Below, one piece after another: positions 3,404-64,000 of a stretch of 64,000 bases of DNA. The notes below the pieces were generated by a model. That model did not search any database. It was not told the DNA's origin and saw only the letters and a list, made by a program, of their open reading frames with translations. Numbering within the stretch: the first letter of the stretch is position 1; the number at the start of each line of letters is the position of its first letter. Source of the DNA: an uncultured Gammaproteobacteria bacterium. GTDB lineage: Bacteria > Patescibacteriota > Microgenomatia > JAUYPR01. Made by a program: the position numbers and the translations under genes. The DNA lies in assembly GCA_964372495.1 (NCBI GenBank), contig CAYJQU010000003.1, forward strand, positions 79,042 to 143,041, written 5' to 3'.

Positions 3404-3431
3404 ACTCTTGTGCTGACGCTTCAGGAATTGA

Positions 3432-8561: not shown

Positions 8562-8584
8562 CAACTGTAAAAGATAATCGTACG

Positions 8585-18791: not shown

Positions 18792-21633
18792 TGCTATTCT
18801 TTCTCCTTGCAAAAGCCATCATTTTGAGTTCAAACTTGGGGAGTAGTGTGCCTTCGTTATCAACGACTAAAGAAAGGACATTTGGCTGTACAATCACTCC
18901 CTTAACGCCCTTCAAGGCAAGTTCACGTAATTTCTTCCCAATAAAAGCTCTACGCATCTCTAGGCTGCTCAACACGCTTGCAGGTATTGAGTACGCAGAA
19001 ATGACCTCACCTGCCACACCTTCCCGACCTGGAATTTTGTCAGTAGTCTTGAGTACGGCACCCAAGAATGCTATCTCCGGGTATCGCCTCTTATTCTGTT
19101 CCATAAACTGCACAATTTCGTCGCTTGCGCCTTTAAGGCTGCAGCTTGCGAGATCCAGATCGAGGTATGGCATAACCTCGACACCCAGTGGTGCAAGTTT
19201 TGCCGTTAGAGCTGCAAGAATCGGCGAGTTGATACGTTTATCGGATGCAACAAGCCGTGAAGCATTGCTAGGTTCCATCACGACGCCATGCGGAAGGGTT
19301 ACTAACACGTCACCTCTGCATCCTATACAGCGCCCTTCTCCCAAGAACGTGAAGCGTTTTACAATGAGGTCAGGCGCGATAACGTCACCTTTCAACGTTG
19401 GGACGGTAAGTTTCCCACCAGTTCTCCCGCTTACTTCCAGGCACTGCTCTAGGATCTCCATAGTTGTTATACCAACTGCTTCAATGCCGGGAACACGGAA
19501 CAGAGCATCTTCAAGTATTGTGTATTCAACGTTCATAAGTGTTAGATCTGCTTCCCGCGGCACGATAAGCACGGTTTTTGGTAACCGACCAGTTTTCGTT
19601 TCATATGAGGCCAAAAGCGCGGAGATGTACGCGTCCACATGGCCGGAAGACTTCCCCAGTAACTTCTGTGAGAGCATTTCGCTGATTCCCACTCCTCCAG
19701 CACCTCCAGATATATCAAAGATTGTCAGGCGGAGCTTTCCTTCCCGGGTTAGAGAAGCCAACGGTGGCTCAAGTCCCTCAAGATTTCCTTGCGCCATGAA
19801 GGTTTCAAGAATCTGTCTTCGTGTCTCAGGGGGATAGAGTAAGAAGTAATCCATCTGGAGTAACTCTCTCCCTGGGGTCATTTCTGTGGGTGGTGCATTC
19901 AGTAGACTACTCAAATGTGCGCGTGCTACTGCCGTTATTTCCTCGACTGGCACGCGCACTTTATTAGTAGGAGCGAGCATCCTACAGAGGTTCCCAGATA
20001 CAGTGTCGACTGCATCGGCAACTAGTTGTGTTGCTGCGACCAAACCTTCTGCGTATGGTTGACCGACGCATGCACGCAAGGGTGAAAGACGCACAGTATT
20101 TTGTATCAACCGCGCGCCATACCGGGATTGTAGTGTGAGGTTTGTATCTAGCTCAGGAGTGACCGTTCCAGTAAGTCCTTGTATATCATCTCTTAGCTCA
20201 AACAGTGGCGTGCCAGCAAGCTTGCTCCCAGCACCACGTCCTACCATTGAGAACAACATCTCCGTTTTCCGCTCGGGGGTGTAGAATGTGATTGGTTGTT
20301 CAACAACCCCGTCGGCCGTGTCGATAGATGTCGTAAAGTAGCCATTAAATTCCGGTGAACCTGCGACGAGCTCATTGATTCGTGAAGCCAGCTCGTCTCT
20401 TGTTGCAGCCAGTGATACCGTTGTACCGAATCGCAGTAGATTTTCTGGAGATACCAGCTGGCTTTTTCCAATTGTGACCTGGGGAACGACAAACTGGTAA
20501 GCTTTTGGTCGCGATCCAGGTTCAAGCTGCACGACCTCTGTGCCTGTCTTGGGAGAATCGTCGGATGCCATAAGCCGACAAGCGCTTTCTATGAGCTTTA
20601 TTTGTATCGTGGGTAGCTCAGAAAGCTTTGCTACATCAGTAAGTGTTGTGCGCTGTGCCTCGAGTAATGCTGTATCAATCGCGGCTCGTGCACGCTCTTC
20701 GGTCAATTCTTGAATAGTGCGCTGGGCAAAAAGCTCGAGTAACTCATCCCCGGTAACCGCATCTTTGAGTCGTTTCCTGAGGAGTTCTTTCCCGCGAGTA
20801 AGGACGGCCTTCCTAAGAGAAACTCCTTCTGCGAGATTATGTACATCTATTGTGCTAGCTACATTCTCTTGTTCGATAATTTCGTTTACTGCGAGTTCAA
20901 ACCGAGAGTATTCTCGTGCTCCGCCTGCGGCTACGGCCTCTCGCCTCATAACCATAAGCTTTCGTTCGACGATAATGTTACGTAGTTTTGTAAGGACTAG
21001 TGAATCGCCTGCTAGTAGCTGGGGAAAACGTATTGCCGCAAGCCCTCGTGCCTCCTGGGCAATCTGGTTTTGGAGCAAAGTATCGCTACGTGCACGCTCG
21101 AGCACTTGTTCATCAAGCACTGCAAGCACGCCGCGTGCCTTTTCAGCGTTAGTAGCTACGTTTGTATCTGGTACAATCGAGAGTCCTTGAAGATATTCAT
21201 GAGAAAGTTTTCTGAGCTTAATAAATCCTGCCCTAGTCTGTGGAAGCGTTACGGGAAGCAGCTCTCTCAAGCGGGATGCTGTGCTAAATGAACTTATATC
21301 TCTTGCTACTTGCATAAGTCGCTCAATGCGGTCGCTGGTGTCGAGTACCAAACTAAGCGGTAACGAGCCAACACGCTCTTGGAGGAGCGCGCTATTCGGG
21401 CCCCTGCTGTTCGAATCACGTATGTCTCCGTCTACCAGGAAATCAAGGGCGGGACTGTTCTGCATAAGCACTTTAGTGACCACATCGCATGCGCTTTGGT
21501 CGCTGCTTTCCTCGCGCCGCATGAACTGCCGAACACAATTCACCCCGCGCCTAAGCCGCAGTCGAGGTACGGTACTCTCAGTATCGATCCGCTGCTCCAA
21601 TATTCTTATTAATTCTGTTCTTTCAACCTGCAT
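18784..21633 (-). CDS. large (949 aa) protein of unknown function; N-terminal half helical and charged, C-terminal half with a glycine-rich DISGGAGGVGIS loop
   Basis: uninterrupted 956-codon ORF; the Gly-rich loop resembles the phosphate-2 motif of actin-like (ASKHA) ATPases (DIGGGTT); no confident family assignment is possible by eye. Confidence 0.45.
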   Translation of the reverse strand: MQVERTELIRILEQRIDTESTVPRLRLRRGVNCVRQFMRREESSDQSACDVVTKVLMQNSPALDFLVDGDIRDSNSRGPNSALLQERVGSLPLSLVLDTSDRIERLMQVARDISSFSTASRLRELLPVTLPQTRAGFIKLRKLSHEYLQGLSIVPDTNVATNAEKARGVLAVLDEQVLERARSDTLLQNQIAQEARGLAAIRFPQLLAGDSLVLTKLRNIIVERKLMVMRREAVAAGGAREYSRFELAVNEIIEQENVASTIDVHNLAEGVSLRKAVLTRGKELLRKRLKDAVTGDELLELFAQRTIQELTEERARAAIDTALLEAQRTTLTDVAKLSELPTIQIKLIESACRLMASDDSPKTGTEVVQLEPGSRPKAYQFVVPQVTIGKSQLVSPENLLRFGTTVSLAATRDELASRINELVAGSPEFNGYFTTSIDTADGVVEQPITFYTPERKTEMLFSMVGRGAGSKLAGTPLFELRDDIQGLTGTVTPELDTNLTLQSRYGARLIQNTVRLSPLRACVGQPYAEGLVAATQLVADAVDTVSGNLCRMLAPTNKVRVPVEEITAVARAHLSSLLNAPPTEMTPGRELLQMDYFLLYPPETRRQILETFMAQGNLEGLEPPLASLTREGKLRLTIFDISGGAGGVGISEMLSQKLLGKSSGHVDAYISALLASYETKTGRLPKTVLIVPREADLTLMNVEYTILEDALFRVPGIEAVGITTMEILEQCLEVSGRTGGKLTVPTLKGDVIAPDLIVKRFTFLGEGRCIGCRGDVLVTLPHGVVMEPSNASRLVASDKRINSPILAALTAKLAPLGVEVMPYLDLDLASCSLKGASDEIVQFMEQNKRRYPEIAFLGAVLKTTDKIPGREGVAGEVISAYSIPASVLSSLEMRRAFIGKKLRELALKGVKGVIVQPNVLSLVVDNEGTLLPKFELKMMAFARRKNSNG

Positions 21634-21651
21634 ATAATCTCTTTTTGCCCA

Positions 21652-21680
21652 CAAAAAAACCTCCCGGCGGGGAGGTTTGT
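21652..21680 (-). terminator. candidate intrinsic terminator on the minus strand (CCTCCCCGCCGGGAGG hairpin plus T7) downstream of the secreted-protein gene
   Basis: plus strand reads AAAAAAACCTCCCGGCGGGGAGG; it sits immediately 5' of the 949-aa gene start. Confidence 0.4.
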
Positions 21681-21830: not shown

Positions 21831-22832
21831 TTAGAATCTCTTGAGGGGCTCAACGAGGACCATTGACTTGCCAGTTGCGTCGGTGTGCATTTCGTACTTG
21901 TCGTTATCGAGCGAAAATACGATCTTATAGCCGGGAGTGATCACTTGCGCGTAGACCTTTCCTGCCTCTTTGACCCCCAGGCTCGTATCAACCCAGGTAA
22001 CGCTCTCTTTTGACACAACTTTGAGCTTACCTGACGGTACATTTAGGTGGCCTGCAAGTTTTTGCTGAGCCAGAAGCACAACTCTTTCCATTGCCGCAGC
22101 TTGAGTGCTCAGTTTTTCGCTTTTCTCCTTTGGAGTTGGACTTGGACTGGAAAGTGTTGTCGTACCAGTGACATGTATCCGGAGCGCCAGCTTTTCTCCT
22201 CCGTCATCTTCTGTAATGATGACTACTTTTGCGCCGCGGGTTACCTTAGAAAAGTCCGCGGTCTTTTGTCCCTTGACTGATACTTCAGTGTTGTTGTCAA
22301 GCACGAACTCCTCGACTTTGGAAGCTTTTAGATCCTGAATAGTTAGTGATTTAGTGGCGGCTTCGGTTACCATGCCAAAGTATATCGTTTTAGCGCGTTG
22401 GGGTTTGTCTGGAAGGGTGTAGACGCGCAGGGCAAGCGCACCGCCTTCCCTGCCAGATGCTACAACGACGACACGCTGGTCGGGCTTAAGGTCAGCTACC
22501 GTACCTCGTGATTTTCCTTTGATAACAGTTGCTTGTGTAAGCCCCAGCGTTTTGCTGCCAGATTTTGTTTTGATGGTGAGATTCTTTTTGTCGATGGTCG
22601 CAATGGTACCTGAGGAAACCGACTTTCTGATCGTTTCAGCAGTCGCTGTAGCAATTTTCTCCTTTAGGTCATCGGTCAACTGCGCGGCCCGTGTGGCGAG
22701 CTTGGATTTCAGTGCCTCTATGGCGCTCGGCGTTGGTCCGGCGGTTGGCGGAGGGGTAGCTGTTTGGGCTGCAACGAGGGAAGGGAGGATTAGTAGCATT
22801 AGGCTCCCTATAATGACAAGGGGCAGTCTCAT
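21831..22832 (-). CDS. secreted hypothetical protein (signal peptide, repetitive Lys/Thr-rich beta-like segments)
   Basis: N-terminal MRLPLVIIGSLMLLILPSLVAAQ signal; 333 aa; no catalytic motifs recognised. Confidence 0.4.
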   Translation of the reverse strand: MRLPLVIIGSLMLLILPSLVAAQTATPPPTAGPTPSAIEALKSKLATRAAQLTDDLKEKIATATAETIRKSVSSGTIATIDKKNLTIKTKSGSKTLGLTQATVIKGKSRGTVADLKPDQRVVVVASGREGGALALRVYTLPDKPQRAKTIYFGMVTEAATKSLTIQDLKASKVEEFVLDNNTEVSVKGQKTADFSKVTRGAKVVIITEDDGGEKLALRIHVTGTTTLSSPSPTPKEKSEKLSTQAAAMERVVLLAQQKLAGHLNVPSGKLKVVSKESVTWVDTSLGVKEAGKVYAQVITPGYKIVFSLDNDKYEMHTDATGKSMVLVEPLKRF

Positions 22833-25762: not shown

Positions 25763-28028
<2,266 letters not shown>

Positions 28029-28032
<4 letters not shown>

Positions 28033-29543
28033 GTTACATCATCCTCGCCAGTAAATTCTTTTTTAACGATTTCAACAACCTCAGTCAGCTCGGTTATGCT
28101 AGCATCTGAAAGTTCCTCGGTCTCGTCTATTGTCTCCAGGAGTTTCCCCTTTTGGGTAGCGAGATAGTCTCGGAACGCATGCTCGAATGGGGCAACATTT
28201 TCAGAAGTAATGGCGTTTAGCTGTCCTGACGTTACCGCCCAGAGGAGTGCTGCTTGCTGTACTACTGGCACGGGTTGATATGGTGGTTGCTTGAGCACCT
28301 CAACGATTCGCTTGCCTAGTTCCAGACGCCCCCTTGTTGTTGGATCGAGGTCAGCGCCGAATTGCGCAAATGCCGCGAGCTCCCGGTATTGAGCCAGGTC
28401 AAGTCTGAGTTTGCCGGCTACTTGTTTCATCGCTTTGATTTGCGCCACACTCCCCACTCGGGAGACCGAGAGTCCTGCATTCACCGCGGGGCGAATACCT
28501 GCATGGAAGAGCTCAGACTCAAGGTAAATCTGTCCGTCGGTAATGGAAATGACGTTGGTGGGAATATATGCGGAAACATCACCTGCCTGGGTCTCGATGA
28601 TGGGAAGCGCCGTAAGTGAGCCACCCCCGTTTTCCTTGTTTAATTTTGCGGATCGTTCGAGTAGTCGGGAATGGAGATAAAAGACGTCTCCCGGGTATGC
28701 TTCGCGTCCTGATGGGCGTCGGAGAAGTAATGAAAGTTGCCGATAAGCCCACGCGTGTTTGCTTAAGTCGTCGTAAATGATGAGCACGTCTTTTCCTTGA
28801 TCCATAAAGTATTCACCCAGCGCGGTAGCACTGTAGGGGGCTAGGTATTGAGTAGTTGCGCTCATTGCCGATGATGCCGAGACAATAATGCTATGATCAA
28901 GCGCCTCGTACCGCGCCAGCGTTGCTGTAATCGATGCAATAGTGCTCATTTTTTGCCCGATTGCCGTGTAGATGCAGATAACATCTTTTTGATTTAAGAT
29001 GGTATCTATGGCGATCGTTGTTTTGCCAGTCCCGCGATCTCCAATAATTAGCTCCCGTTGGCCGCGTCCGATGGGGATCATGCTATCAATAGCCTTCAAT
29101 CCAGTTTGTAAGGGTGTTTTCACGCTCTCCCTGACGATGACCCCGGGGGCAGGCCGCTCGACCGGATAGCTCTTTTTTGCACTAATCGCGCCCTTTCCGT
29201 CCAATGGTTGTCCCAACGGATCGATGACCCTCCCAATAAACTCTTCTCCTACGGGCACTTCAAGTATCCTCCCAGTGGTACGTACCTCGCCTCCCTCTTT
29301 GAGGTGTTCAAAGCTACCCACAATGACGGCACCCACAGATGTTTCTTCGATATTGAAGGCGATACCGTACGTATCTCCGCCGAAAGATAACAGTTCCGAG
29401 GCCATTGCTTCTGACAAACCGCTGATTCTGGCGATACCGTCACCAATTTCCAAAATAGCGCCGACGTTTGATTTGAGGGCGCCTTGCGTGATCGTTTGTA
29501 TTTGATTTTCCAGCAATTTTAAAATGGTTGCCTTTTCGTCCAT
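28029..29543 (-). CDS. atpA: F0F1 ATP synthase alpha subunit
   Basis: GDRGTGKT P-loop; start set at the internal ATG (MDEKATILK) abutting the atpH stop. Confidence 0.95.
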
Positions 29544-29545
29544 GG

Positions 29546-29941
29546 TTAGCGTCCTAGCTGTTGTACACGAGTCTTTAAACTGCCATCCCAAATACTGTCA
29601 CCAATGCGCACCGTGATGCCGCCGAGTATGCTTTTGTCTTCCTGCGCGAGGAGTGAATGCACTGATGGAAAGCGATCGCGGATGCGGTCAAGTAACTCGT
29701 GTTGCTCCTGCGCGCTCAAGGGCCACGCTGCTTTCACAAGCGCGGTTTCTTTGGCGATTTGGTTAGCAATAAGGAAGCGATATGTTCGCAGGAGTATGAG
29801 TGCCTCATGTGGCTTTCTTGCCGCAAAAAGTATTGCCCAAGAGGCAACTTTTTTATTATCTAACTGCCCCTCAGTACTGCTTTCACGAAATGCCAAGCGG
29901 ATGAGTTGTTGATGCAGGCGAGAGGTCCGTGTGGCTTTCAT
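29546..29941 (-). CDS. atpH: F0F1 ATP synthase delta subunit (short, 131 aa)
   Basis: position between atpF and atpA; OSCP-like helical content. Confidence 0.6.
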
Positions 29942-30438
29942 CAGTGTGACACCTCTTCTATTGTTTGCGCAACAAGACGCTTCTGGTCAGATGGTGAGAT
30001 GATTCGTCTCAGCACCTTTTCGACAGTGAGCATAACCAGGCGCGCCAGTTCTTGCCTGAGCTCTGTGTGCATAAGGAGTCGATCCTGCGCGATCTCTTTT
30101 TTTGCATCAGCAATGATGGCTTTCGCTTTGCCTTCTGCTTCTGCTTGCGCTTTGGCGATAAGATCGGTAGCCGACTGCTTTGCGGAGCCAACGATCTCGG
30201 AAGCTTCTAATCGAGCTTGCGCGATGAGACGCTCCTGCTCCTGCCTGACGCTTGCAAGACGCTCTTCAATCTCTTGTGCCTGGTTGATGCTCTGCGCTAT
30301 ACGACGCTTTCGTTCCTCAAGCATGGTTACTACTGGCTTATAGAGAAAGCGACGCAGGAGCAGCACAAGGATGAGGAAATTAATCACTTGCGCCAAAAGT
30401 AGAATCGGTTGTACGCCAAACTCGCGAGCGGTTTCCAA
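29941..30438 (-). CDS. atpF: F0F1 ATP synthase B subunit
   Basis: N-terminal TM followed by a long charged coiled-coil (EERKRRIAQSINQAQE...); operon position. Confidence 0.65.
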   Translation of the reverse strand: METAREFGVQPILLLAQVINFLILVLLLRRFLYKPVVTMLEERKRRIAQSINQAQEIEERLASVRQEQERLIAQARLEASEIVGSAKQSATDLIAKAQAEAEGKAKAIIADAKKEIAQDRLLMHTELRQELARLVMLTVEKVLRRIISPSDQKRLVAQTIEEVSH

Positions 30439-30476
30439 AAAGCGTTAGCCTCCTTTCTTCAAACTATCATACTGCC

Positions 30477-31450
<974 letters not shown>

Positions 31451-31601
31451 ACTGCATCACTACAAACAAAGCCCTCACTCAGGGCTTGCCTCTGGTCTGT
31501 AGGTATGCCGATTGTACCAGATGCTCATATCACGTCAACAACAATAATACAACGCTTTTTACCCATGAAGTCATTATACAGGCTTTTCTATAGAGTAGCG
31601 G

Positions 31602-31686
31602 TGCCGGGGGAGGGAGTTGAACCCACACGATCTTTTGGATCACGCGCTCTTGAGGCGCGCGCGTCTGCCAATTCCGCCACCCCGGC
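31602..31686 (-). tRNA. tRNA-Leu (anticodon CAA), class II with long variable arm
   Basis: reverse complement folds as GCCGGGG acceptor stem, D-arm, CGCGC-CTCAAGA-GCGCG anticodon arm (CAA), GATCCAAAAGATCG variable arm, GGTTCAACTCC T-arm, discriminator A. Confidence 0.8.
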
Positions 31687-45608: not shown

Positions 45609-47287
<1,679 letters not shown>

Positions 47288-47331: not shown

Positions 47332-47847
47332 TTGTTAGGATGTGCAGGAGGCCAAAGTCGTATGAGGATTGACGAAAAGATTTGTACGCTAGACACCCTG
47401 CCTACAAAACGGTGGAAAGATGGAGGAGGAGTGCTAGTTACCGGCGTATTTGATATTCTACATCCTGGCCATTTGATTTTTCTTGAGAAGGCGAAAGCTG
47501 CCGGTAGCATGCTCGTGGTAGGAGTAGAATCAGATAAAAAGGTGCAAGAGATGAAAGGAAGTGAGCGGCCGCTGCATTTGCAGGAGGAGCGCGTATTTCT
47601 GGTTGCTGCTCTTGGGCCGGTGGACTACGCCTTTCCCCTCCCCTACATCCCTCAGGATGAGTACGAAGACGTGTGTAGGGTCACCTCCTGTCAGATCTTG
47701 GCAGTGACGAAAGGAGACCCATTCCTTGCCCGGAAGCAAGCGGTTATGAAGAACGTCGGCGGCTCGGTCGCGCAGGTATCGCAGCGCGTGCCACTACACT
47801 CTACAACGCGGATTCTCAGGGGCCTTTATGCTCAAAACAACAGTTGA
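47332..47847 (+). CDS. cytidylyltransferase-like nucleotidyltransferase (RfaE domain II / FAD synthetase N-terminal-like)
   Basis: GVFDILHPGH (HxGH) motif; about 165 aa; alternative start at MRIDEK (47362). Confidence 0.5.
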   Translation: MLGCAGGQSRMRIDEKICTLDTLPTKRWKDGGGVLVTGVFDILHPGHLIFLEKAKAAGSMLVVGVESDKKVQEMKGSERPLHLQEERVFLVAALGPVDYAFPLPYIPQDEYEDVCRVTSCQILAVTKGDPFLARKQAVMKNVGGSVAQVSQRVPLHSTTRILRGLYAQNNS

Positions 47848-48679
47848 CCGATTTCTTACCCATCTACGTAGGACAAAAAGTTCCCCGCTCACCGTTGCGA
47901 ACTACCAACGCTATCTTGCTCGATTTGTGAACTTTGCCGATGACAGTTCTCTTGACGCAATTACTCCCGAGTTACTTTCTGCATACAGCGAACACCTTGC
48001 CGGTGAGTCTCTCAAAAAGGTGAGTATTAACTATCACAAGATAGCATTGCGCAGATTCCTGAAATATCTTGGAGAAAGCGGACTTTCTGGGATTGACTGG
48101 CGCAGCATTGCGCTGGCAAAGCAGGCTTATCGTCCACCCACCCCTTTGGAGATTTTGGATGTTGACAAGCTGTTAAAACTGCCTGACGTGCGAAAAACGT
48201 CTGGACTGCGCGACCGTGCCATACTCGAGCTGCTGTATTCCACAGGAGTTCTAGTGTCGGAACTGATACGACTCGACCGTGGCGATGTAAAAGTCAAGCG
48301 ACTCGCACTGAGAATCATTGGAAAGCACGGCGGTGAAAGGCAGATTGAGTTGTCCGACCGCGCTGCATATTGGCTTGAGCAGTATCTGCGGACGCGAGAT
48401 GATGTGTTCCAGCCGCTGTTTATTCGCTATCAGGGCATCATGGACCTGACTGATGAGGGAGCATATATGCGACTTACCAGTCGTTCAGTTGAGCGGATCG
48501 TGGCCAAGTATGCCCGGCAGGCGGGGCTCGCTTCCCGAGTTACTCCTCACGTACTGCGGCATACGCGGGCGAAAGCACTGTTGGCAGCGGGAGCAAATTG
48601 GGAAAGGGTGCGCCAGGCGCTTGATCACAGAAGCGTTGTCACGACGAGGTTGTTATATGAGGAAACCAAGAAAACTTGA
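47828..48679 (+). CDS. divergent tyrosine recombinase/integrase (Xer-like)
   Basis: LRDRAILELLYSTG; HVLRHTRAKALLAAGANWERVRQALDHRSVVTT..LLY catalytic region; 283 aa. Confidence 0.6.
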   Translation: MLKTTVDRFLTHLRRTKSSPLTVANYQRYLARFVNFADDSSLDAITPELLSAYSEHLAGESLKKVSINYHKIALRRFLKYLGESGLSGIDWRSIALAKQAYRPPTPLEILDVDKLLKLPDVRKTSGLRDRAILELLYSTGVLVSELIRLDRGDVKVKRLALRIIGKHGGERQIELSDRAAYWLEQYLRTRDDVFQPLFIRYQGIMDLTDEGAYMRLTSRSVERIVAKYARQAGLASRVTPHVLRHTRAKALLAAGANWERVRQALDHRSVVTTRLLYEETKKT

Positions 48680-48703: not shown

Positions 48704-49426
48704 GTGGGATACATAAGTATACGTTCGCAGCGACTCCGAGGATTTACCCTTATTGAGTTACTTGTTGCGGTTGGAATTATTGCTATATTGAGCGTAGTAG
48801 CAGTCGCCTTTTTTGGTAGTGCTTCTACCAAAGCCCGCGATGCAAAACGACGCTCAGATGTGGATGCGATCGCTAAAGCGTATGAGCTGGTTTATGATGG
48901 TAATGAGTATCGTGCGTTGGCCGCGCCCGACTTCACTACTGTAGGCGGTGTTCCAAAAGATCCAAAAACTAGCGCCGAGTATGGTGGTGCTTCGCGCGGA
49001 CTTGCGGCCGACAGGAAAAGCTTTCGCGTATGCGCTGATTTAGAAACTGTGCCGGGGGCTGATGATTACTGCAAGGCTTCCTCTTTAAGCAGCGTGGCAG
49101 TTGTGCCTCCGTGTCAGCAATTTAATAACACCAACGAGCAGAGCTGCTTAGTATGGGTAAGAAGCGGTACTGCGCCTTCTGGTTCAACCAAATACATAAA
49201 GTGCGCAGATATTGTCACTGCGTATACTGCGTATGGCGGCGGCGTAGTTGATTGCAATCGCGCTCCCGGAATTTGTCAATATAATCCGTATGGTCCGTCT
49301 ACCGGTGGCGTTAACTACTATGATGATGCTACTTCAGTAAGTCTTGCGGGCCAGTTTGCTTTTTTGACCCAGGAATGTGCAGCGTATTCGTATTATTCAC
49401 GAATCACGGTTAGAATTCGCGAGTAG
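48704..49426 (+). CDS. type IV pilin-like protein (prepilin N-terminal methylation motif), Cys-rich
   Basis: RGFTLIELLVAVGIIAILSVVA prepilin motif; many Cys; C-terminal CADLE-like D-region; 240 aa. Confidence 0.7.
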   Translation: MGYISIRSQRLRGFTLIELLVAVGIIAILSVVAVAFFGSASTKARDAKRRSDVDAIAKAYELVYDGNEYRALAAPDFTTVGGVPKDPKTSAEYGGASRGLAADRKSFRVCADLETVPGADDYCKASSLSSVAVVPPCQQFNNTNEQSCLVWVRSGTAPSGSTKYIKCADIVTAYTAYGGGVVDCNRAPGICQYNPYGPSTGGVNYYDDATSVSLAGQFAFLTQECAAYSYYSRITVRIRE

Positions 49427-52698: not shown

Positions 52699-55830
<3,132 letters not shown>

Positions 55831-55832
<2 letters not shown>

Positions 55833-57528
55833 GAAAGTCGAATCAAGCAAAGGTATAGAAGATGCTCTCTTTAAAGAGAAGCTGCTCACTCCCGAGCAGT
55901 TGTCAAGTCTGAAACTCGAGAGTGCAAACACCGGTAAATCGGTTGATGAACTACTGTTAACCCACAAATACGTAACCGAGGATCAACTTATCCAGGCCCG
56001 CGCTTCGCTACTAGATATACCCTCTGTCAAACTGGTGGGCAAGGCAATCCCGATTGATGTGCTTAACTTAGTTCCTGAGCCGGTGGCAAGACGGTACACC
56101 TTGATCCCGTTTGAACGGTCGGGAGACACGCTGTCGGTTGCGATGGCCGACCCACTTGATTTGCAAGTTATCGAATTTGTTGAACGCAAAACAAAGCTTG
56201 AGGTAAAACCAGTACTTGCCGCGGGCAGTGATATCCAAAAAGCCATAGATGAACAGTATGCCCAAAGCCTGTCGACCGATGTGTCAGCAGCGCTAAAGGA
56301 AACCACATCAGCTAAAGAGAAAGAGCTTCCTGCTGAAAATGTTGGCGAGGTTATTCGTGAGGCACCAGTTGCCAAGATTGTCAGTACGCTGCTTGAGTTT
56401 GGCATCAAGACAAAGGCGTCCGATATTCACATTGAGCCGCAGGAGGATAAAACGAGAATTCGGTATCGAATCGACGGTATTTTGCACGAGAAGTTGGTAT
56501 TGCCAAAGAAAGTGCATGACGCGGTTGTGTCGCGCATCAAGATACTCGCTCAGCTCAAGATTGATGAGAAGCGACTTCCGCAGGATGGACGCTTTAACTT
56601 CAAGATGGGAGGCGAGGACATCGATTTGCGTATCTCTACGCTGCCTACTGTGGAAGGCGAAAAGATCGTGATGCGACTGCTGAAAAAAACAGGAGCCGCA
56701 CCGCAGCTACCTGAGCTGGGGTTGCGCGGCAGTGCTCTCAAAAATCTTGAGGCGAATATCCTACGTCCCCACGGGATCGTACTGATCACTGGTCCGACCG
56801 GCTCAGGAAAGACCACTACCCTGTATGCTATTTTAAGCAAAATCAATTCACCGAAAGTAAATATCATTACGCTTGAGGATCCGGTGGAATATCAAATCCC
56901 CGGCGTAAATCAGGTACAGATTAACCCGCAGGCAGGCCTGACTTTTGCATCTGGGCTGCGGTCGTTTTTGCGCCAAGATCCCAACATCATTATGGTCGGC
57001 GAGATTCGTGATACCGAAACCGCCGCGCTTGCGATACAGGCCTCGCTCACTGGACACCTGGTGTTTTCTACGCTGCACACCAATGATGCTTCCGGGGCAC
57101 TCCCGCGGCTTCTTGAAATGAAAGCGGAGCCATTCCTCCTTGCATCCACGATGAACTGCGTGGTGGCCCAGCGGGTGGTGCGTAAGATTTGCGATTACTG
57201 TAAAGAGGTGGTCTTGGCGCCAGCGGAACTTTCGCAAGCGATTAAAGCGGTGCTTGGTAAGCTCCTACCCGACAAAGAAATGCAACTCTATCGGGGCAAG
57301 GGATGTCCACACTGCGGTGATAGCGGATATACGGGGCGCATTGGTATCTTTGAGGTGCTGCCTGTGACCGAAAAAATTGGGAGGCATATACTTGAACGAG
57401 CACCCTCAGGCGAGATCGCCAAAGCTGCCACCGAGGAAGGCATGATTACGCTCAAGCAGGATGGTTTCTTGAAAGCACTCGCGGGCATCACGTCAATAGA
57501 GGAAATACTGCGCGTGGCAGAGGAATAA
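55831..57528 (+). CDS. pilB: type IV pilus assembly ATPase PilB (GspE family)
   Basis: N-terminal GSPII domain; Walker A GPTGSGKTTTLYA; Asp box; His box; C-terminal CxxC...CxxC (CDYC...CPHC) zinc motif. Confidence 0.85.
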
Positions 57529-57532
57529 TAAG

Positions 57533-58606
57533 ATGGTTGTTGGCATAGAGAAACTACTGGAGTTTGTGGTTGCAAAGGAAGCCTCCGACCTCCATCTGCT
57601 TGTCGGCTCTCATCCCTATGTGCGGCTGGATGGGGCATTAAAGCCAATCACTGACGTGCCAGTGCTGGGACCGCAAGAGCTCGAAAAGCTTGTATTTGAG
57701 ATCGTAACTGCCGAGCAGAAGGATTTGCTGCTTGCCAATAAGGAAATTGACTTTTCCTTCTCCTGGGGCGAGCATGCGCGCTTTCGGGTAAATGCGTACT
57801 ATCAGCGGGGGTACTTGGCTGCGGCGTTGCGTTTGATACCGCGCCGTATCCGCACGATTGAGGAACTGGGAATTTCTTCGGCACTGCACGCGCTTACCCA
57901 GCTCAAGCAAGGATTTGTCTTGGTCACTGGTCCCACTGGCCATGGCAAATCGACCACCCTTGCCGCGATGATTCAAGAAATTAATGCGCACCGCGCTGAG
58001 CATATTCTGACCATTGAAGATCCGGTCGAATACATATATCCACCCGGCAAGTCCATCATTTCCCAGCGAGAGATGCATCTGGACACTCACTCTTGGGATA
58101 TAGCACTTCGGTCTGCGTTGCGCGAGGATCCAAACGTGGTTTTGGTGGGAGAGATGCGAGATTATGAAACCATAAGCAGCGCTATTACTATTGCCGAGAC
58201 CGGTCATCTGACCTTTGCCACCCTCCATACTAATAGTGCGGCGCAGACCATCGACCGCGTCATCGATGTATTTCCTGAGCACCAGCAGGCGCAAATTCGC
58301 ATGCAACTCTCAAACGCCCTCGAGGCAGTTATCTCGCAACGGTTACTGCCGGCGGTCAACGGCGGGCGCGTGGCGATACTGGAGCTTCTCATCGCAACGC
58401 CGGCAGTTCGCACGGTCATTCGCGAAGGAAAGACACATCTGATCGACAATATTATCCAAACGTCCATGGAGATGGGTATGACATCTCTGGAGATGTCGCT
58501 GGCGCGCGCGGTACATGAGGGTAAGCTTTCTGAGGAGATTGCCATGCAGTACGCGATAAAGCCAGAAGAGCTATCACGCCAGCTCGGCCATCGGTCCAAG
58601 GCATGA
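57533..58606 (+). CDS. pilT: twitching motility ATPase PilT
   Basis: ASDLHL; GPTGHGKSTTLAAMI Walker A; 357 aa. Confidence 0.85.
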   Translation: MVVGIEKLLEFVVAKEASDLHLLVGSHPYVRLDGALKPITDVPVLGPQELEKLVFEIVTAEQKDLLLANKEIDFSFSWGEHARFRVNAYYQRGYLAAALRLIPRRIRTIEELGISSALHALTQLKQGFVLVTGPTGHGKSTTLAAMIQEINAHRAEHILTIEDPVEYIYPPGKSIISQREMHLDTHSWDIALRSALREDPNVVLVGEMRDYETISSAITIAETGHLTFATLHTNSAAQTIDRVIDVFPEHQQAQIRMQLSNALEAVISQRLLPAVNGGRVAILELLIATPAVRTVIREGKTHLIDNIIQTSMEMGMTSLEMSLARAVHEGKLSEEIAMQYAIKPEELSRQLGHRSKA

Positions 58607-59811
58607 ACATATACCAGTACTTCGCACGCGATGAACAGGGGCGTCCACGCAAGGGTGAGATAGAATCTCCAGATGAGCACGGTGTCATTTTGACGCTACG
58701 CGCTAATGGCCTGTACCCCATTCGCATTAGAGAAAAAGGACCAGAAAATGTCTTCCTTGCCCGCCTTAAGTCATTTCAATTATTCGGCGGCAACGATGTG
58801 GTGGTATTCACACGCCAGCTTTCCACGATGGTTGCCGCAGGACTCTCGCTGACCTCAGCACTCGACATTTTACGGGAGCAGATACCGGGCTCGATCCTGA
58901 AGGAGGCACTGACAGGGATTGTACGGGACATTGAGGGAGGTACCAGCTTCGCGGCTGCTTTGGAGCGGCATCCGCGCACGTTTAGCAGCGTATACGTGTC
59001 GCTTGTGCGGGCTGGAGAGGCAGCAGGGGTACTGGATAATGTGCTTTTGCGACTTGCCGACAACCTTGAAAAAGATCGGGAATTTAAGGCGAAGACGCGC
59101 GGCGCTTTGGTGTATCCGACCATTATCATCATTACGATGATTATTGTGGTCACGATTATGATGTTATTTGTCGTACCACGACTTACTGGGCTCTATCGAG
59201 AGCTTGGCACAGACTTGCCACTACCCACCAGGATCATGATCGGGGTCTCGGATTTTGCGGTCCACTGGTGGTGGCTGGTCATTATCTTGGCTATCGGGGG
59301 TGCCATTATGCTGAGGCGATGGTCTCTTACACCTGCTGGCAACCGCATTGTTGATCGTATAGTTCTCAAAATCCCGGTGTGGGGTTCTATTCAACGACAC
59401 GTGATCCTCTCGGAGATCATTCGCACGCTGTCGCTTCTTATTGGGGCTGGCATTCCCATTATTGAAGCGCTGCAGATTGTGGCTAGAGCCTCTGGCAATA
59501 CACTCTTTTCTGACTCCATTCTTGCAGCGGCACAGCAAGTAGAGCGTGGCTATTCTTTGTCACAGCCTTTGGCAAGCGATCCAGTGTTCCCGCCAATCGT
59601 GCACCAGATGGTGCGTACTGGCGAGTCGACCGGTAAGCTGGATGAGATTTTGATGAAGCTTGCAGGGTACTTTGAGGGAGAAGCAGAACACGAGATTAAG
59701 GGGTTGACAGTCGCTATAGAGCCGATTATCATGATAATATTGGGGGTGGGCGTGGCGTTCTTAGTAATGTCCATTATACTCCCGATTTATAAGTTAACTA
59801 GTTCGTTCTAA
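58603..59811 (+). CDS. pilC: type IV pilus inner-membrane platform protein PilC (GspF family)
   Basis: two T2SS-F repeats; 402 aa; 4-nt overlap with pilT. Confidence 0.8.
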   Translation: MNIYQYFARDEQGRPRKGEIESPDEHGVILTLRANGLYPIRIREKGPENVFLARLKSFQLFGGNDVVVFTRQLSTMVAAGLSLTSALDILREQIPGSILKEALTGIVRDIEGGTSFAAALERHPRTFSSVYVSLVRAGEAAGVLDNVLLRLADNLEKDREFKAKTRGALVYPTIIIITMIIVVTIMMLFVVPRLTGLYRELGTDLPLPTRIMIGVSDFAVHWWWLVIILAIGGAIMLRRWSLTPAGNRIVDRIVLKIPVWGSIQRHVILSEIIRTLSLLIGAGIPIIEALQIVARASGNTLFSDSILAAAQQVERGYSLSQPLASDPVFPPIVHQMVRTGESTGKLDEILMKLAGYFEGEAEHEIKGLTVAIEPIIMIILGVGVAFLVMSIILPIYKLTSSF

Positions 59812-59908
59812 ATGTATTTACCTGCCCGTTCTTCAAACACTGTCGTACCACACCCTCTTTCTTCAGGGTATCTTTGCCTGCATATATACGATTTTCTGGA
59901 GGAAGGGG

Positions 59909-60406
59909 GTGATAAGAACGGTTATGTACAAGCAAAAGGGGTTTACCTTAGTTGAACTCCTGGTCGTGGTTGCCATTATCGCGATACTTGCTGCGGTTGT
60001 AGCTATTGCCGTCAACCCGTTTGAGATTGCCAAGAAAACAAGAGATACCACGCGTCTAAAGGATCTCAGTACGGTTCGAGACGCGATCAATCTGCTCGTC
60101 GCACAATCGGCAACTCGCTCGGCGGACACGATCTTCAAGGATTCCATTGCTCACGATTCTAAGACTGGTGCCACTTCGTGTGACGGGACAGGATGGGTAG
60201 TGGTTGATTTGTGCCAGAATTTGGCAGCGCTCCCGCGTGATCCGATCAATGACGACACCTATAAGTATGAGTTTAGGCACGACAATGGTCAGTTTGAGGT
60301 GCGTGCCAAACTGGAGAGTGACGAGATGCGCTCGCAGCGATACACCGCGGATGGTGGAGATGACCAGGAGCATTACGAGGTGGGAACGAGGTTGACGATT
60401 CTGTAG
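59909..60406 (+). CDS. type IV pilin-like protein
   Basis: KGFTLVELLVVVAIIAILAAVVAIA prepilin motif (probable start at MYKQKG, 59924); paralogue of 61303-61842 (GDDQEHYEVGTRLTIL vs GDDPEHFELGNNLTLL). Confidence 0.65.
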   Translation: MIRTVMYKQKGFTLVELLVVVAIIAILAAVVAIAVNPFEIAKKTRDTTRLKDLSTVRDAINLLVAQSATRSADTIFKDSIAHDSKTGATSCDGTGWVVVDLCQNLAALPRDPINDDTYKYEFRHDNGQFEVRAKLESDEMRSQRYTADGGDDQEHYEVGTRLTIL

Positions 60407-60413
60407 GGTATGT

Positions 60414-61292
60414 ATGGTGCTGGTATTGGTTGGGTTGTTCGTCTTAGGCTTGGTGATGGGAAGTTTTGCAAGCGTGCTAGCTGCGCGCTTGCCCGAAGGA
60501 AAGTCTTGGCGAGTGACAAGGTCGGCATGCCCACAGTGCGGTCGTACACTTGCGGCAGCTGACCTTGTTCCTATCGTAAGCTTTGCACTTTTACAAGGGA
60601 AGTGTCGCTACTGTAAAAAGGCGATTAGTTTGCAGTACCCGCTCCTAGAACTGGGTATGGCGGCAGCGTTTGTGGGGATTGGTTTCCTACTATGGCCATC
60701 ACTGCATATGGGCGCATGGCTTTCAGCCCTGGCTCTTGTTTGGGTGCTGGTACTTGTTTTTATCACCATAGTTCTTGTGGTTACCGATCTTAGCCACTCT
60801 CTGCTGCCTGACGGACTGATATTTGCCGGTATTTGGGCTACGTTGCTGTATAAAGTAGTCACTATTGTTGGCAGCCACACAGCACTGCGAGCACAGCTCC
60901 ATGGAGAGATTTCAGGGTTCGGCGCTGCGCTTTTCGAGAGTGGTTTTCTGCAAGGTCGTCTTAATAGTCAGATTGCAGAAAATTCGTGGGCCGTGGTTGG
61001 TGCACTCCTGGCTGCACTGGTTTTTTGTATCCTCATTGCAGTAACTCGCGGCAAAGGTATGGGCCTTGGAGACGTGAAGCTCGTATTCCTCATTGGAATT
61101 GTCGTTGGATGGCCGCAGCTACTAATAGCCCTGTTTATTGCATTTGTAACCGGTGCCGCGGTGGCGATCGTACTGGTAGTAAGTCACGTTCGCACCTTTG
61201 GTCAGACAATACCATTTGGACCTTTCTTGCTTGCCGGAGGCGTCATTTCCTTTGTATATGGGAGCCAACTGCTAGAGATCATTGGTTACTAA
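60414..61292 (+). CDS. pilD: prepilin peptidase (A24 family)
   Basis: N-terminal CPQCG...CRYCKK zinc-binding; 8 TM; conserved Asp-containing loops (GMGLGDVKL). Confidence 0.8.
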   Translation: MVLVLVGLFVLGLVMGSFASVLAARLPEGKSWRVTRSACPQCGRTLAAADLVPIVSFALLQGKCRYCKKAISLQYPLLELGMAAAFVGIGFLLWPSLHMGAWLSALALVWVLVLVFITIVLVVTDLSHSLLPDGLIFAGIWATLLYKVVTIVGSHTALRAQLHGEISGFGAALFESGFLQGRLNSQIAENSWAVVGALLAALVFCILIAVTRGKGMGLGDVKLVFLIGIVVGWPQLLIALFIAFVTGAAVAIVLVVSHVRTFGQTIPFGPFLLAGGVISFVYGSQLLEIIGY

Positions 61293-61302
61293 AGAGATAT
61301 AT

Positions 61303-61842
61303 ATGAAAGATCAGCCAACATTGAAAGGGCATGCCCCTAGCGGAGCCATGACGTCACGTCGGGGCGAGGTGGGGTTCACTTTAATTGAGCTGCTTATAGT
61401 GCTTCTCATTCTGGCATCTCTTGCAGTGCTTGTGGCACTTGCGATTAATCCAGCGGAGGCTATCAAGCGCACTAGAGATGCCAAACGTATACAGGAGCTG
61501 TCCAATTTGCGCAGCTCTATTGAGATTGCACTGAGCTCAACCCAGAAGCCGGCGGAGGAACTTTTTTTGGGCGCGTATGGGAGCTCAACGGACGAAGGGG
61601 CTCAGAGCACCGACGGCACCGGGTGGGTGAAAATTGATCTTTCCCGCAATCTACCGGCGCTCCCTATCGATCAAGTGCAAACCGGTGATCCGTCGTACCG
61701 ATTTGAGTTTAAACAATCGGGTGGCAAGTATGAAATCCGCGTGCGGCTAGAGAGCGCCGAAAAACGTGAGCAGACAGGCGAAATCGATGGCGGCGATGAT
61801 CCGGAGCATTTTGAGCTGGGCAATAACCTAACGCTCCTATGA
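61303..61842 (+). CDS. type IV pilin-like protein
   Basis: GFTLIELLIVLLILASLAVLVALA prepilin motif; paralogue of 59909-60406. Confidence 0.65.
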   Translation: MKDQPTLKGHAPSGAMTSRRGEVGFTLIELLIVLLILASLAVLVALAINPAEAIKRTRDAKRIQELSNLRSSIEIALSSTQKPAEELFLGAYGSSTDEGAQSTDGTGWVKIDLSRNLPALPIDQVQTGDPSYRFEFKQSGGKYEIRVRLESAEKREQTGEIDGGDDPEHFELGNNLTLL

Positions 61843-62282
61843 GGAGCGGCTTTTCGCTCGTTGAGCTCCTGGTCGTGATAGCTATCATTGCAATACTTTC
61901 AGGAGCCGCGGTGATGATTTTTACCTCTGCGTTACCCCGTGCGAGAGATAGTCAGCGACGCTCGGACATAGATGCGATTGCCAAAGCGATCGAGAGTAGT
62001 ACGTATGAGAGTATCACTGGGACGTACGCCGCGACGACAGCATCCCCCAGTGCGAGTTGGTTTGCTGGCGGTAGGATGCCTCGACAGAGCGATGGGAATA
62101 ACTATACGATTGTGTGGATGAGTGCTGCCGGCAGCCCGGTGGCTGCAGGTGTTGGGGTAACTGCAGCCAAGTGGCGAGTCTGTGCACAACTTGAAACGGG
62201 TTCCGGCAACGCGGCCGACGCAAATGGGACACCGGCTGCTGGAAACAACGGGCTGTATCACTGTGGGTACAGCGCTCAGTAG
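61839..62282 (+). CDS. type IV pilin-like protein
   Basis: MRSGFSLVELLVVIAIIAILSGAAV; C-terminal CAQLE...C D-region. Confidence 0.65.
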   Translation: MRSGFSLVELLVVIAIIAILSGAAVMIFTSALPRARDSQRRSDIDAIAKAIESSTYESITGTYAATTASPSASWFAGGRMPRQSDGNNYTIVWMSAAGSPVAAGVGVTAAKWRVCAQLETGSGNAADANGTPAAGNNGLYHCGYSAQ

Positions 62283-62285
62283 AAT

Positions 62286-62687
62286 ATGAAAAAAGAGCGT
62301 GGGTTTACACTCATAGAATTATTGGCGGTTATTTTGATCATCGCCCTACTTTCTGCAATCGGGATGGCCGTATATGCCGGGGCGCAAAAGAGAGCGCGCG
62401 ATGCCCGCCGCCGGGCCGATATCCAGGCTATTGCCGACGCCTTTGAACAGTACAATATCAACACGGGCGAATATCCTGTATCGGTTTCAACCCCGACGCA
62501 GTATTATGTCAATGCTCAAGTACCAAAAGACCCGAAATCGACAGTAGGCGGTGCGTGTCCTGCAACTGCACCGTTTTATTGCTACGCTTGCAATCAAAAT
62601 GGGAGCTCGTGCACGACATCTGGGTTCACTCTATGTGCAGTGCTTGAGCAGGACGGTTCAACCTTTTGCAAAGGGAATCGTCAGTAA
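62286..62687 (+). CDS. type IV pilin-like protein
   Basis: MKKERGFTLIELLAVILIIALLSAIG; C-terminal CxxC...CAVLEQ. Confidence 0.65.
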   Translation: MKKERGFTLIELLAVILIIALLSAIGMAVYAGAQKRARDARRRADIQAIADAFEQYNINTGEYPVSVSTPTQYYVNAQVPKDPKSTVGGACPATAPFYCYACNQNGSSCTTSGFTLCAVLEQDGSTFCKGNRQ

Positions 62688-62696
62688 GAAAGGGAG

Positions 62697-63185
62697 GTGA
62701 ATATGAAAAGAAAAAGGCTTGCCCTGAGCGCGGTTGAAGGATTTACCCTTATTGAGTTGATGATTGCGATTGCCATTATTGCGGTCTTGGTTGTCATTGG
62801 TATGGCAGTATATGCAGAAGTACAGAAGAAGAGTCGAGATGCACGGCGGGTTGCGGATGTTCGTGCTATCCAAAATGCTGCTGAGGCGTATTATAGCGAG
62901 AAAGGATATTATCCGGCAGCAAAGGATAATGTAAAGACCTATCTTGAGTCCCGTCTTTTTCCCACTGATCCCAAAACTGGCAACGAGGAGTACCAATACT
63001 CAGCAACAGATGGTACCTTACAGGATGACGGCACCTGCAGTGGAGTCCCCGCTGCGGTTACTAATGCCAAATGTTACGTAGCGTGCGCAAAACTTGAACA
63101 AGTTGATAAAGGCAATTCATCAACTAATAATGGCACTGCTGCTACAATAAACAGGACACATTTCTGTGGCCGTGCACGCCAGTGA
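62697..63185 (+). CDS. type IV pilin-like protein
   Basis: EGFTLIELMIAIAIIAVLVVIG; C-terminal CYVACAKLEQ. Confidence 0.65.
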   Translation: MNMKRKRLALSAVEGFTLIELMIAIAIIAVLVVIGMAVYAEVQKKSRDARRVADVRAIQNAAEAYYSEKGYYPAAKDNVKTYLESRLFPTDPKTGNEEYQYSATDGTLQDDGTCSGVPAAVTNAKCYVACAKLEQVDKGNSSTNNGTAATINRTHFCGRARQ

Positions 63186-63688
63186 AAGCAATAAGAAATG
63201 GCTTTACCCTTATTGAACTGCTAGTTGTGGTGACGATTATTGCGGTGCTGGCAGCTATCGGACTTGCGACCTATACGCAGGCGCAGAAAATCGCGCGTGA
63301 CAGCCGTCGTATGGCGGATATTAAGGCGGTTCAGAGTGCTGCAGAAATTTACAAAACGCAAATAGGCAGTTATCCGAAAGATGCTGCGGTGCTTGCGGGG
63401 CGAATGGAAGGAGGAGTTTTTCCAACCGACCCTAAATCGGGCTCTGCATATGACTATCGGGCAAACAAGTACACATTAAACTCCCGCCAAGCATGTCTCC
63501 CTGAAGGTAGAATCACCTATACAATCGATGCAGGATACGGTTGCGAAACTGACGGCCTCTGTACGTGTTATACGGTTTGTGCGGTACTTGAGCAACAAGG
63601 GAAGGGTAACGCAATTACAACATATGGATCGACACCTGGGGATAGCGGCGTTTCACCTAACCTGTACTGTGCAGGAGCCAAACAGTAA
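63182..63688 (+). CDS. type IV pilin-like protein
   Basis: NGFTLIELLVVVTIIAVLAAIG; C-terminal CTCYTVCAVLEQ. Confidence 0.65.
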   Translation: MKAIRNGFTLIELLVVVTIIAVLAAIGLATYTQAQKIARDSRRMADIKAVQSAAEIYKTQIGSYPKDAAVLAGRMEGGVFPTDPKSGSAYDYRANKYTLNSRQACLPEGRITYTIDAGYGCETDGLCTCYTVCAVLEQQGKGNAITTYGSTPGDSGVSPNLYCAGAKQ

Positions 63689-63691
63689 CGT

Positions 63692-64000
63692 ATGCGAGGG
63701 TACACGCTTATAGAACTCCTTGTTGTCATCACGATCATAGCTATCGTGGTGGCGATTGGCGTGGCGACCTTTAGCTATGCCCAGAAAGTAAGCCGGGACG
63801 GGCGGCGCATTGCTGATGTACGTAGCATCGAAGCAGCGTTAGAACTCTACTACACAAAAAATAGAATATATCCTACTGCTATTGCTACTGGCTGGACTAA
63901 CTCCTCAGCACAGCCGGGAACCTGGATTAACCAAGCACTCACAGGATACGAGGCATTTACTCCCACATACATGCGTGCTGTCCCGAATGATCCGGTTAAT
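63692..64000 (+). CDS. type IV pilin-like protein, 5' part only (runs off the window end)
   Basis: ATG at 63692; MRGYTLIELLVVITIIAIVVAIG prepilin motif; open to position 64000. Confidence 0.6.
   Translation, partial: MRGYTLIELLVVITIIAIVVAIGVATFSYAQKVSRDGRRIADVRSIEAALELYYTKNRIYPTAIATGWTNSSAQPGTWINQALTGYEAFTPTYMRAVPNDPVN

Follow-up and report, generated by a model that had tools for sequence, protein, structure and literature searches.

A probable type IV pilus operon with a run of 16 pilin-type genes in a Microgenomates-group bacterium

The DNA described here is a stretch of 64,000 nucleotides (the window; contig CAYJQU010000003.1 of assembly GCA_964372495.1) whose end runs into a series of genes encoding type IV pilin-like proteins, arranged behind the pilus genes pilB, pilT and pilC and around pilD. 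[quoted passage not shown] Followed beyond the window, the array comprises 16 pilin-type genes in an uninterrupted 9.6-kb run: 15 prepilins and one PilX/GspK-like protein. Of the machinery, the assembly ATPase PilB as well as PilC, PilD and PilT are present, all four being identified by family match (Table 1).

The array and its counterparts in related genomes

A preliminary description of this DNA had reported a tandem array of at least seven pilins downstream of pilB-pilT-pilC-pilD, one lying between pilC and pilD and six after pilD, the last of them cut by the window end, and all carrying a class III signal. ORFs (open reading frames) and translations agree with this arrangement. The seven proteins match PF07963 (N_methyl) or TIGR02532 with E values of 1.6e-10 to 1.7e-3 (p2 is under the Pfam cut-off and over that of TIGR02532), and each is recognized by a strict regular expression that requires a hydrophobic helix after the class III signal. 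In the 64-kb window, this expression finds eight sites, seven of which fall in a single same-strand run of 4.1 kb, a clustering far beyond chance. The eighth is an orphan pilin, p0, located well upstream, which makes a seventeenth pilin besides those of the array.

The end of the array, which the preliminary description had proposed to look for by extending the contig, is reached on a near-identical contig. This 15,984-nt Logan contig (L001, sample ERR3478686), found via an exact-protein look-up of p6, overlaps the window from 57856 to 64000 (6,145 nt) with a single mismatch and reaches 9.7 kb further; window coordinates equal those of L001 plus 57855. It continues without a strand switch and adds nine array genes beyond p7. 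The full order is pilB-pilT-pilC, p1, pilD, then 15 co-directional genes, 14 of which encode a G/FxxxE-type prepilin signal (the slash separating residues -1 and +1), and the last gene ends at window-equivalent position 69514. Junctions between pilin genes range from -4 to +15 nt, and most array genes are translationally coupled.

The host had been taken for a CPR bacterium, and the homologues of GyrB, PilC and p1 agree on this point. The best named relatives of GyrB (67-70% identity) belong to Ca. Curtissbacteria, Ca. Daviesbacteria and the "Patescibacteria group", with one further relative at 79%. Scans of genome and metagenome collections with PilC returned closest loci of 47-52% identity, in Microgenomates-type metagenome-assembled genomes, the CPR-labelled ones among the best matches being Ca. 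Daviesbacteria, and none closer than ~52%. These results support the assignment of the organism to the CPR, within the Microgenomates and near Curtissbacteria and Daviesbacteria, and show that its lineage is sparsely sampled. For several of the best PilC matches the automated label, for instance "uncultured Gammaproteobacteria", is plainly unreliable.

About 30 related loci retrieved with enough flanking sequence share one architecture: pilC, one pilin of the p1 type (group A, see below), pilD, GspG-like pilins, and a minor block made of a GspH-like, a PilV-like ("GQSLVE"), a PilW-like and a p13-like gene. They hold 4-10 prepilin genes, as compared to 15 in the present operon, which is therefore expanded about two-fold; loci of the Saccharibacteria type have 1-3 downstream of pilC. 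The earlier impression of an unusually large pilin set is borne out by this comparison. The expansion is visible as the pairs p1/p2, p5/p6 and p7/p8, plus p9 and p14-p16.

Two short contigs from closer relatives, obtained by exact-protein look-ups, calibrate the rates of divergence. In the first, PilC is 80% identical, p1 83% and PilD 54%. In the second (L074), the values are 75% for PilC, 70% for p1, 48% for PilD, and 57% and 63% for the orthologues of p2 and p3, which occur in the same order. It follows from these comparisons that the paralogues are stable genes passed on vertically; their orthologues are no more diverged than PilD, a pattern that fits purifying selection.

Table 1. Genes of the pilus locus, the orphan pilin and the recombinases upstream of it, in window coordinates unless stated otherwise (a slash separates residues -1 and +1)
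Feature	Position	Strand	Description	Family evidence
second recombinase	45609-46568	+	Xer-like, 1.3 kb further upstream than the tyrosine recombinase	
tyrosine recombinase	47828-48679	+		PF00589 + SAM-like N-domain
p0	48704-49426	+	orphan group-B-like pilin, 240 aa, Cys-rich C-terminal extension of ~110 aa	PF07963 E 2.4e-7; regular expression match
pilB	ORF 55744-57528, probable start ATG ~55831	+		TIGR02538 E 4.2e-177; GspE E 1.5e-177
pilT	57533-58606	+	retraction ATPase	TIGR01420 PilT/PilU 442.9 bits (cut-off 319.1); PF00437
pilC	58603-59811	+	platform protein	PF00482 T2SSF x2, E 3.9e-64
p1	59909-60406	+	group A pilin, leader MIRTVMYKQKG/FTLVE, between pilC and pilD	
pilD	60414-61292	+	prepilin peptidase/N-methyltransferase	PF06750 (A24_N_bact) E 3.5e-27; PF01478 (Peptidase_A24) E 8.2e-11
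p2	61303-61842 (alternative TTG start 61282)	+	group A pilin, long leader ...RRGEVG/FTLIE	TIGR02532 21.8 bits (cut-off 16.3)
p3	61839-62282	+	GspG-like group B pilin, 4-residue leader MRSG/FSLVE	PF07963 E 2.3e-7
p4	62286-62687	+	GspG-like group B pilin, C-terminal CAVLEQ...C block	PF07963 E 5.9e-8; TIGR01710 GspG E 4.5e-12, below cut-off
p5	62703-63185 (alternative GTG start 62697)	+	GspG-like group B pilin, good Shine-Dalgarno site GGGAGG	PF07963 E 3.2e-6
p6	63182-63688	+	GspG-like group B pilin	PF07963 E 8e-8
p7	63692-64000 (L001 5837-6346)	+	GspG-like pilin, 169 aa at full length, cut by window end	PF07963 E 2e-6
p8	beyond window, on L001		173 aa, prepilin signal	
p9	beyond window, on L001		174 aa, prepilin signal	
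p10	beyond window, on L001		215 aa, prepilin signal	
p11	beyond window, on L001		181 aa, prepilin signal	
p12	beyond window, on L001		247 aa, prepilin signal	
p13	beyond window, on L001		280 aa, ...SKG/QVVVM..., no Glu5	
p14	beyond window, on L001		216 aa, prepilin signal	
p15	beyond window, on L001		163 aa, prepilin signal	
p16	beyond window, on L001		173 aa, prepilin signal	

Pilin classes, minor pilins and the fibre

The complete prepilin signal (a short basic leader, Gly-1, a hydrophobic residue at +1, Glu+5 and ~20 hydrophobic residues) is found in p1-p12, p14-p16 and p0, with Tyr, Thr and Gln at position +1 in p7, p9 and p11, respectively. Protein p13 possesses Gly-1 and a PilX_N-like hydrophobic segment and lacks Glu5, as in GspK/PilX. 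Alignment of the paralogues, a check suggested at the outset, together with BLASTP of the globular parts, sorts them into three classes. Group A (p1, p2 and p9) is characterized by the motif "...NP-x-E...DGTGW...LP-x-D...LES...DGGD...YE-x-G..LT-x-L". The GspG-like group B, in a broad sense, gathers p3-p8 and p14-p16, nine proteins of the array, as well as the orphan p0, around the motif [quoted passage not shown]. The third class is formed by p10-p13. The divergent middles noted earlier are real: the globular parts are only 36-43% identical even in the closest pairs. These reciprocal best-hit pairs, p1/p2 (43%), p5/p6 (36% over 135 aa) and p7/p8 (38%), represent old tandem duplicates.

The p1 family counts 1119 homologues, essentially full-length and, where named, from Ca. 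Daviesbacteria; 26 columns are invariant among 43 sampled sequences, including the N-P-x-E helix break. The AlphaFold2 model of p1 (pLDDT of 90.3, thus confident) predicts an extended N-terminal helix with a kink where the invariant Asn-Pro lies, and that of p6 (pLDDT of 86.1) a long N-terminal helix and a β-sheet, with the overall shape of a pilin. Both models show the lollipop fold, a long N-terminal α-helix packed on an antiparallel β-sheet. The best Foldseek matches of p6, a T4b pilin and EpsG, are weak; against the PDB, a profile built from p6 plus homologous sequences hits the EpsG, XcpT and PulG globular domains with E ~1e-6.

A C-terminal disulfide-loop block, "C-A-x-LEQ...C", had been attributed to the last four pilins of the window, between 62286 and 63688, with a looser version in p3. 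The block is indeed carried by p4-p6 and its looser form by p3 (Cys at mature positions 111/138), but the interval holds three complete genes instead of four, and the full-length p7 does not possess the block. Many homologues encoded in other genomes possess it as well, which makes it a family-wide motif of CPR GspG-like pilins and not a feature specific to this locus.

The block p10-p13 is made of proteins that resemble minor pilins. All their family matches score below the curated cut-offs. The best match of p10 is GspH (E 1.9e-9; 37.8 bits vs a cut-off of 80), followed by ComGD; p11 matches PilV, XpsI and GspI with E values of 1.2e-5 to 6e-4 (25.8 vs 52.2 bits for PilV); p12 matches ComGD alone (E 3e-4), and p13 matches PilX_N (E 1e-3; 19.5 vs 25.5 bits). 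Their order and sizes fit the canonical H-I-J-K succession, the last member of which has no Glu5. Furthermore, p13 is kept at 32-37% full-length identity in 19 related loci and, in those with pilin coordinates listed, its homologues are likewise located towards the downstream end of the cluster. Taken together, the order and sizes of the genes, the lack of Glu5 in the last member and the weak profile matches suggest that p10-p13 are the core minor pilins forming a priming/tip complex. The preliminary description had named as its own refutation that the paralogues be minor pseudopilins of a competence system. Such a description suits p10-p13, beyond the window, as far as their likeness to core minor pilins goes, but not the seven pilins of the window, which are of the major type.

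A related alternative is that the GspG-H-I-J-K-like genes build a short pseudopilus of the type II secretion or Com kind, for export or DNA uptake, instead of a surface pilus. Most paralogues find their best NCBIfam match in GspG, p9-p13 stand in G-H-I-J-K order, and PilB scores as well with GspE, falling just under the equivalog cut-offs of both families (590 bits vs 675 for PilB). CPR type IV pilus systems have also been proposed to function in DNA uptake (PMC6744442), and natural competence is reported in Saccharibacteria (PMC10187176). However, the scores for GspG (30-47 bits vs an equivalog cut-off of 88.85), ComGC-GG (16-32 bits vs 49-80) and GspH-J are far below their cut-offs and a bona fide PilT is encoded in the operon; the paralogues are therefore not members of the GspG or ComG equivalogs, and their similarity to GspG (TIGR01710) is one of fold and motif alone. 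In addition, the window showed no gspC, gspD, gspL, gspM or comEA/EC gene, imaging of cultivated CPR cells has revealed type IV-like pili (PMC11623550), and the surface pilus proposed here leaves room for DNA uptake by a retractile type IV pilus. A pseudopilus is thus improbable.

Regarding the surface pilus, p1 is most likely the major pilin, judging from its conservation across the family and from its place between pilC and pilD, which is the same in all relatives. Its gene is preceded by the longest upstream gap of the array (97 nt, the only long one) with a strong ribosome-binding site, GGAGGA, at 59898-59903; the protein has a conserved helix-breaking Pro and evolves about as slowly as PilC in the two closer relatives mentioned above. 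A sigma-70-like site (TTGACA-17-TATCAT, 11/12) at 59704-59732, within the 3′ end of pilC and ~175 nt upstream of p1, is the best of the region and no more than a hint that p1 might have a transcript of its own. The alternative candidate is p3, which has the shortest leader and the highest content of Gly, Ala, Ser and Thr (GAST; 47%, as compared to 29% in p1 and 27-28% in PilB, PilT and PilC). GAST content has been used to flag shed pilins in the Saccharibacterium TM7x (PMC11623550); as an indicator of the major pilin it favors p3 over p1 here and does not settle the question.

On the basis of established type IV pilus biology, the following sequence of events may be proposed. PilD would cleave the 15 prepilins after Gly-1 and methylate residue +1, and possibly also act on p13 at its Gly-Gln site. 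Proteins p10-p13 would prime assembly and cap the fibre, beneath which PilB and PilC would polymerize the major pilin, be it p1 or, alternatively, p3, while PilT would retract the fibre. Most simply, the extra GspG-like paralogues would be low-abundance or conditional subunits that diversify the surface or the adhesive properties of the fibre. By analogy with cultivated Saccharibacteria, the pilus may be involved in host attachment, twitching and DNA uptake (PMC11623550, PMC9894109).

It is also possible, albeit rather unlikely, that several GspG-like or group A paralogues co-polymerize into a heteropolymeric fibre, as the preliminary description had suggested, or that a single machinery builds alternative fibres depending on the condition or the host. 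Thirteen of the 16 array genes, all except p10-p12, are GspG-like, of the major-pilin type, with very similar α1-N segments; the conserved group A pilin, elsewhere present once, has three paralogues here, and strong Shine-Dalgarno sites are located ahead of no other pilins than p1, p5 and p16, which hints at separate translation units. Precedents exist in the heteropolymeric pilus of S. sanguinis (8pfb), the wide and narrow Thermus pili of PilA4/PilA5 (6xxd/6xxe/8qqj) and the two pili of TM7x (PMC11623550). Known heteropolymer subunits are, however, close paralogues, at variance with the low identity of the closest pairs here; the window contains a single PilB/PilC set, and most genes are translationally coupled and lack their own Shine-Dalgarno site, so that their output is presumably low and uneven. 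PilE1 and PilE2 of S. sanguinis are reportedly about 78% identical. A broader version, a combinatorial subunit toolkit with which one motor would build several distinct fibres, or tip and shaft decorations, for different host surfaces or functions (attachment, twitching, DNA uptake), seems unlikely; if true, a tiny-genome episymbiont would widen its host range without recombination-based variation.

Several points weigh against the assignment of the locus to a retractile type IV pilus operon with the division of labor proposed above. The major pilin is ambiguous, p1 having a low GAST content and p3 a high one along with a 4-residue leader. The minor-pilin assignments draw on hidden Markov model scores below cut-off and on gene order, and the promoter and terminator scans of the region remain at the level of shuffled background. 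Finally, among ~50 ORFs of the window and in the L001 flank, none gives a Pfam match to PilM, PilN or PilO, which leaves the observed machinery incomplete; the corresponding genes may be located elsewhere on the 152-kb source contig.

Stability of the array and neighboring genes

The preliminary description saw in the conserved 5′ blocks of the pilin genes repeated identities of ~20 bp that could drive recombination or variation among the paralogues. Such variation, of antigenic or adhesive nature, could proceed by gene conversion or rearrangement via these blocks, or by a site-specific, shufflon-like system. The 5′ block does recur: allowing up to 3 mismatches, its degenerate consensus has 4 matches (two exact, one with 1 mismatch in the orphan p0, one with 3) vs 0.03 expected by chance. 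A 21-nt exact identity, the only one of that length, links p5 to p0, 14 kb upstream, and a tyrosine recombinase gene directly precedes p0. Moreover, the lone base that differs among three independent samples (63876, C in the window and T in L001) is non-synonymous, changing Thr62 to Ile in p7.

The bulk of the evidence nevertheless contradicts this idea, and the ~20-bp identities did not hold. In an all-pairs comparison, no stretch of exact identity shared by two array genes exceeds 14 nt, and the 5′ blocks are only 61-76% identical over 51 nt. Efficient RecA-dependent exchange needs roughly 20-30 nt, so that 14 nt falls short. All array genes are full length with their own start codon and signal peptide, and no truncated, promoterless or silent copy was found among them. 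Neither inverted repeats, nor simple-sequence tracts, nor homopolymers longer than 8 nt, nor tandem repeats scoring above 37 occur in the array; tracts suited to phase variation were thus looked for and discarded. The order and orthology of p1-p3 are retained in the relative with 75% PilC identity, and 978 nt from the second sample, ERR4904390, are identical to the window, as are the 6,145 nt of L001 but for the base mentioned above. The hallmarks of pilin variation systems, i.e., silent cassettes, inverted sites accompanied by a recombinase, and repeat tracts, are absent from the array, and recombination-driven variation is highly improbable.

A distance of 6.3 kb separates the orphan p0 from the pilB ORF downstream. 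An invertible or shufflon element at this place was considered and rejected, since no convincing inverted repeats flank p0 and the two recombinases, each with the ordinary XerC/D domain pair, resemble a common XerC/XerD couple.

Regarding the borders of the operon, the family alignment of PilB begins at residue 38 of the listed ORF, and its start is therefore likely the ATG near 55831. The longest version of the ORF, starting with TTG at 55744, overlaps by ~220 nt a divergent holB-like ORF (DNA polymerase III delta′, 55179-55967, - strand). Because the 5′ ends of both ORFs have probably been drawn too far out, the divergent intergenic/promoter region between them would be short. At the other end, the array is followed by a convergent gene for a 599-residue polytopic membrane protein with a weak Dpy19-like match (L001 11682-13481, - strand; E 2.5e-3), and then by a PMT-family glycosyltransferase gene (GT39, GT-C; L001 13480-14748, + strand; E 1e-27), the two together corresponding to ~69537-72603 in window-equivalent coordinates. 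Both proteins are candidates for pilin or envelope glycosylation. A link to the pilins was discarded, as neither gene adjoins the arrays of relatives and no conserved association emerges.

Elsewhere in the window, sizeable ORFs without Pfam match at E 0.05, or with insignificant ones only, are found at 18784-21654 (-), 1621-4854 (+), 8474-10272 (+), 16137-17426 (-) and 21831-22832 (-); they include one of 956 aa, a run of three (213, 384 and 446 aa) and a pair (249 and 364 aa). Some of them could encode envelope proteins, whether diverged PilM/N/O-like ones or others. A protein of the F420-0:gamma-glutamyl ligase (CofE) family is encoded at 4909-5643 (+; E 3.9e-35), which is unexpected in a reduced CPR genome, and no other F420 gene was noticed in the window. 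An F1Fo ATP synthase operon (25763-31450, - strand; beta, gamma, alpha, b and a subunits) adjoins a tRNA-Leu(CAA) gene at 31600-31686; it is ordinary and provides useful context for energy metabolism. The window shows no secretin, in line with what a CPR envelope would lead one to expect; no outer membrane is expected in these bacteria.

Comparison with known pilin systems

Among the organelles by which CPR bacteria contact their hosts, type IV pili have the best support, and shaft, tip and specificity pilins are known for one cultivated Saccharibacterium only. The Saccharibacteria strain Nanosynbacter lyticus TM7x has 12 pilins and two pili, which serve in binding to the host and in twitching (PMC11623550). 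Across the CPR, genes for type IV pili are enriched along with the pilin family fam000005, PilQ being absent (PMC6744442), and the Microgenomates bacterium Ch65 possesses a single locus with major and minor pilins (PMC7143001); in general, no secretin is found in the CPR (PMC6744442, PMC7143001). With the CPR type IV pilus loci represented by Ch65, TM7x (T4P-1) and the family fam000005, the present operon shares pilB, pilT, pilC and pilD, several prepilins in one locus and the lack of PilQ, as well as pilins that diverge beyond the N-terminal helix and a GspK/PilX-like member without canonical prepilin signal. Operons in related Microgenomates metagenome-assembled genomes have the same order, in which pilC is followed by the conserved pilin, pilD, the GspG-like pilins and the minor block. 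The operon departs from these loci by its 16 pilin-type genes in one run, as compared to 4-10 in the ~30 related operons and 5 in the first TM7x locus, by the conserved pilin occurring three times, by three extra GspG-like pilins after the PilX-like gene, and by pilM, pilN and pilO not being adjacent.

The array is neither a pilE/pilS nor a shufflon system and does not work like one. As in the pilE/pilS loci of Neisseria and the R64 shufflon (Rci, sfx repeats), many pilin-related sequences sit close together and one pilin, p0, has a tyrosine recombinase gene in its vicinity; promoterless 5′-truncated cassettes, long identical blocks and inverted sfx-like repeats are, by contrast, lacking in the array. 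No new mechanism is revealed, and the recombining variable array, which would have been the remarkable idea, is not supported.

With the GspG-H-I-J-K pseudopilins of type II secretion (TIGR01710, TIGR01708, TIGR01707, TIGR01711), the pilins share the pattern "RDxxRxxD ... P-x-DP ... LE ... DGG", an alignment of the group B profile with the globular domains of EpsG, XcpT and PulG, and the order of p9-p13 with its Glu5-less last member. They differ from them by scores well under the equivalog cut-offs and by the C-terminal Cys pair of group B; besides, PilT is present and no other type II secretion component was found here. In structure, the models of p1 and p6 are best matched by pilins of S. 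sanguinis (PilE1/PilE2, 8pfb), C. difficile (PilA1, PilJ and PilW; 6t8s, 4ixj and 8dx4) and Thermus (PilA4 and PilA5; 6xxd and 6xxe), systems of monoderm and other bacteria in which, as here, several major-type paralogues are served by one or a few machineries.

All components of the operon belong to known families, and this type of locus has already been described for the CPR, Microgenomates among them (PMC7143001, PMC6744442). What sets the operon apart is quantitative: the number of genes in one run, the triplicated conserved pilin and the GspG-like genes after the PilX-like gene. The locus is a compact and extreme case, with its whole set of pilin-type genes behind one motor, and as such a useful test case for the expansion of pilin repertoires and the division of labor among them.

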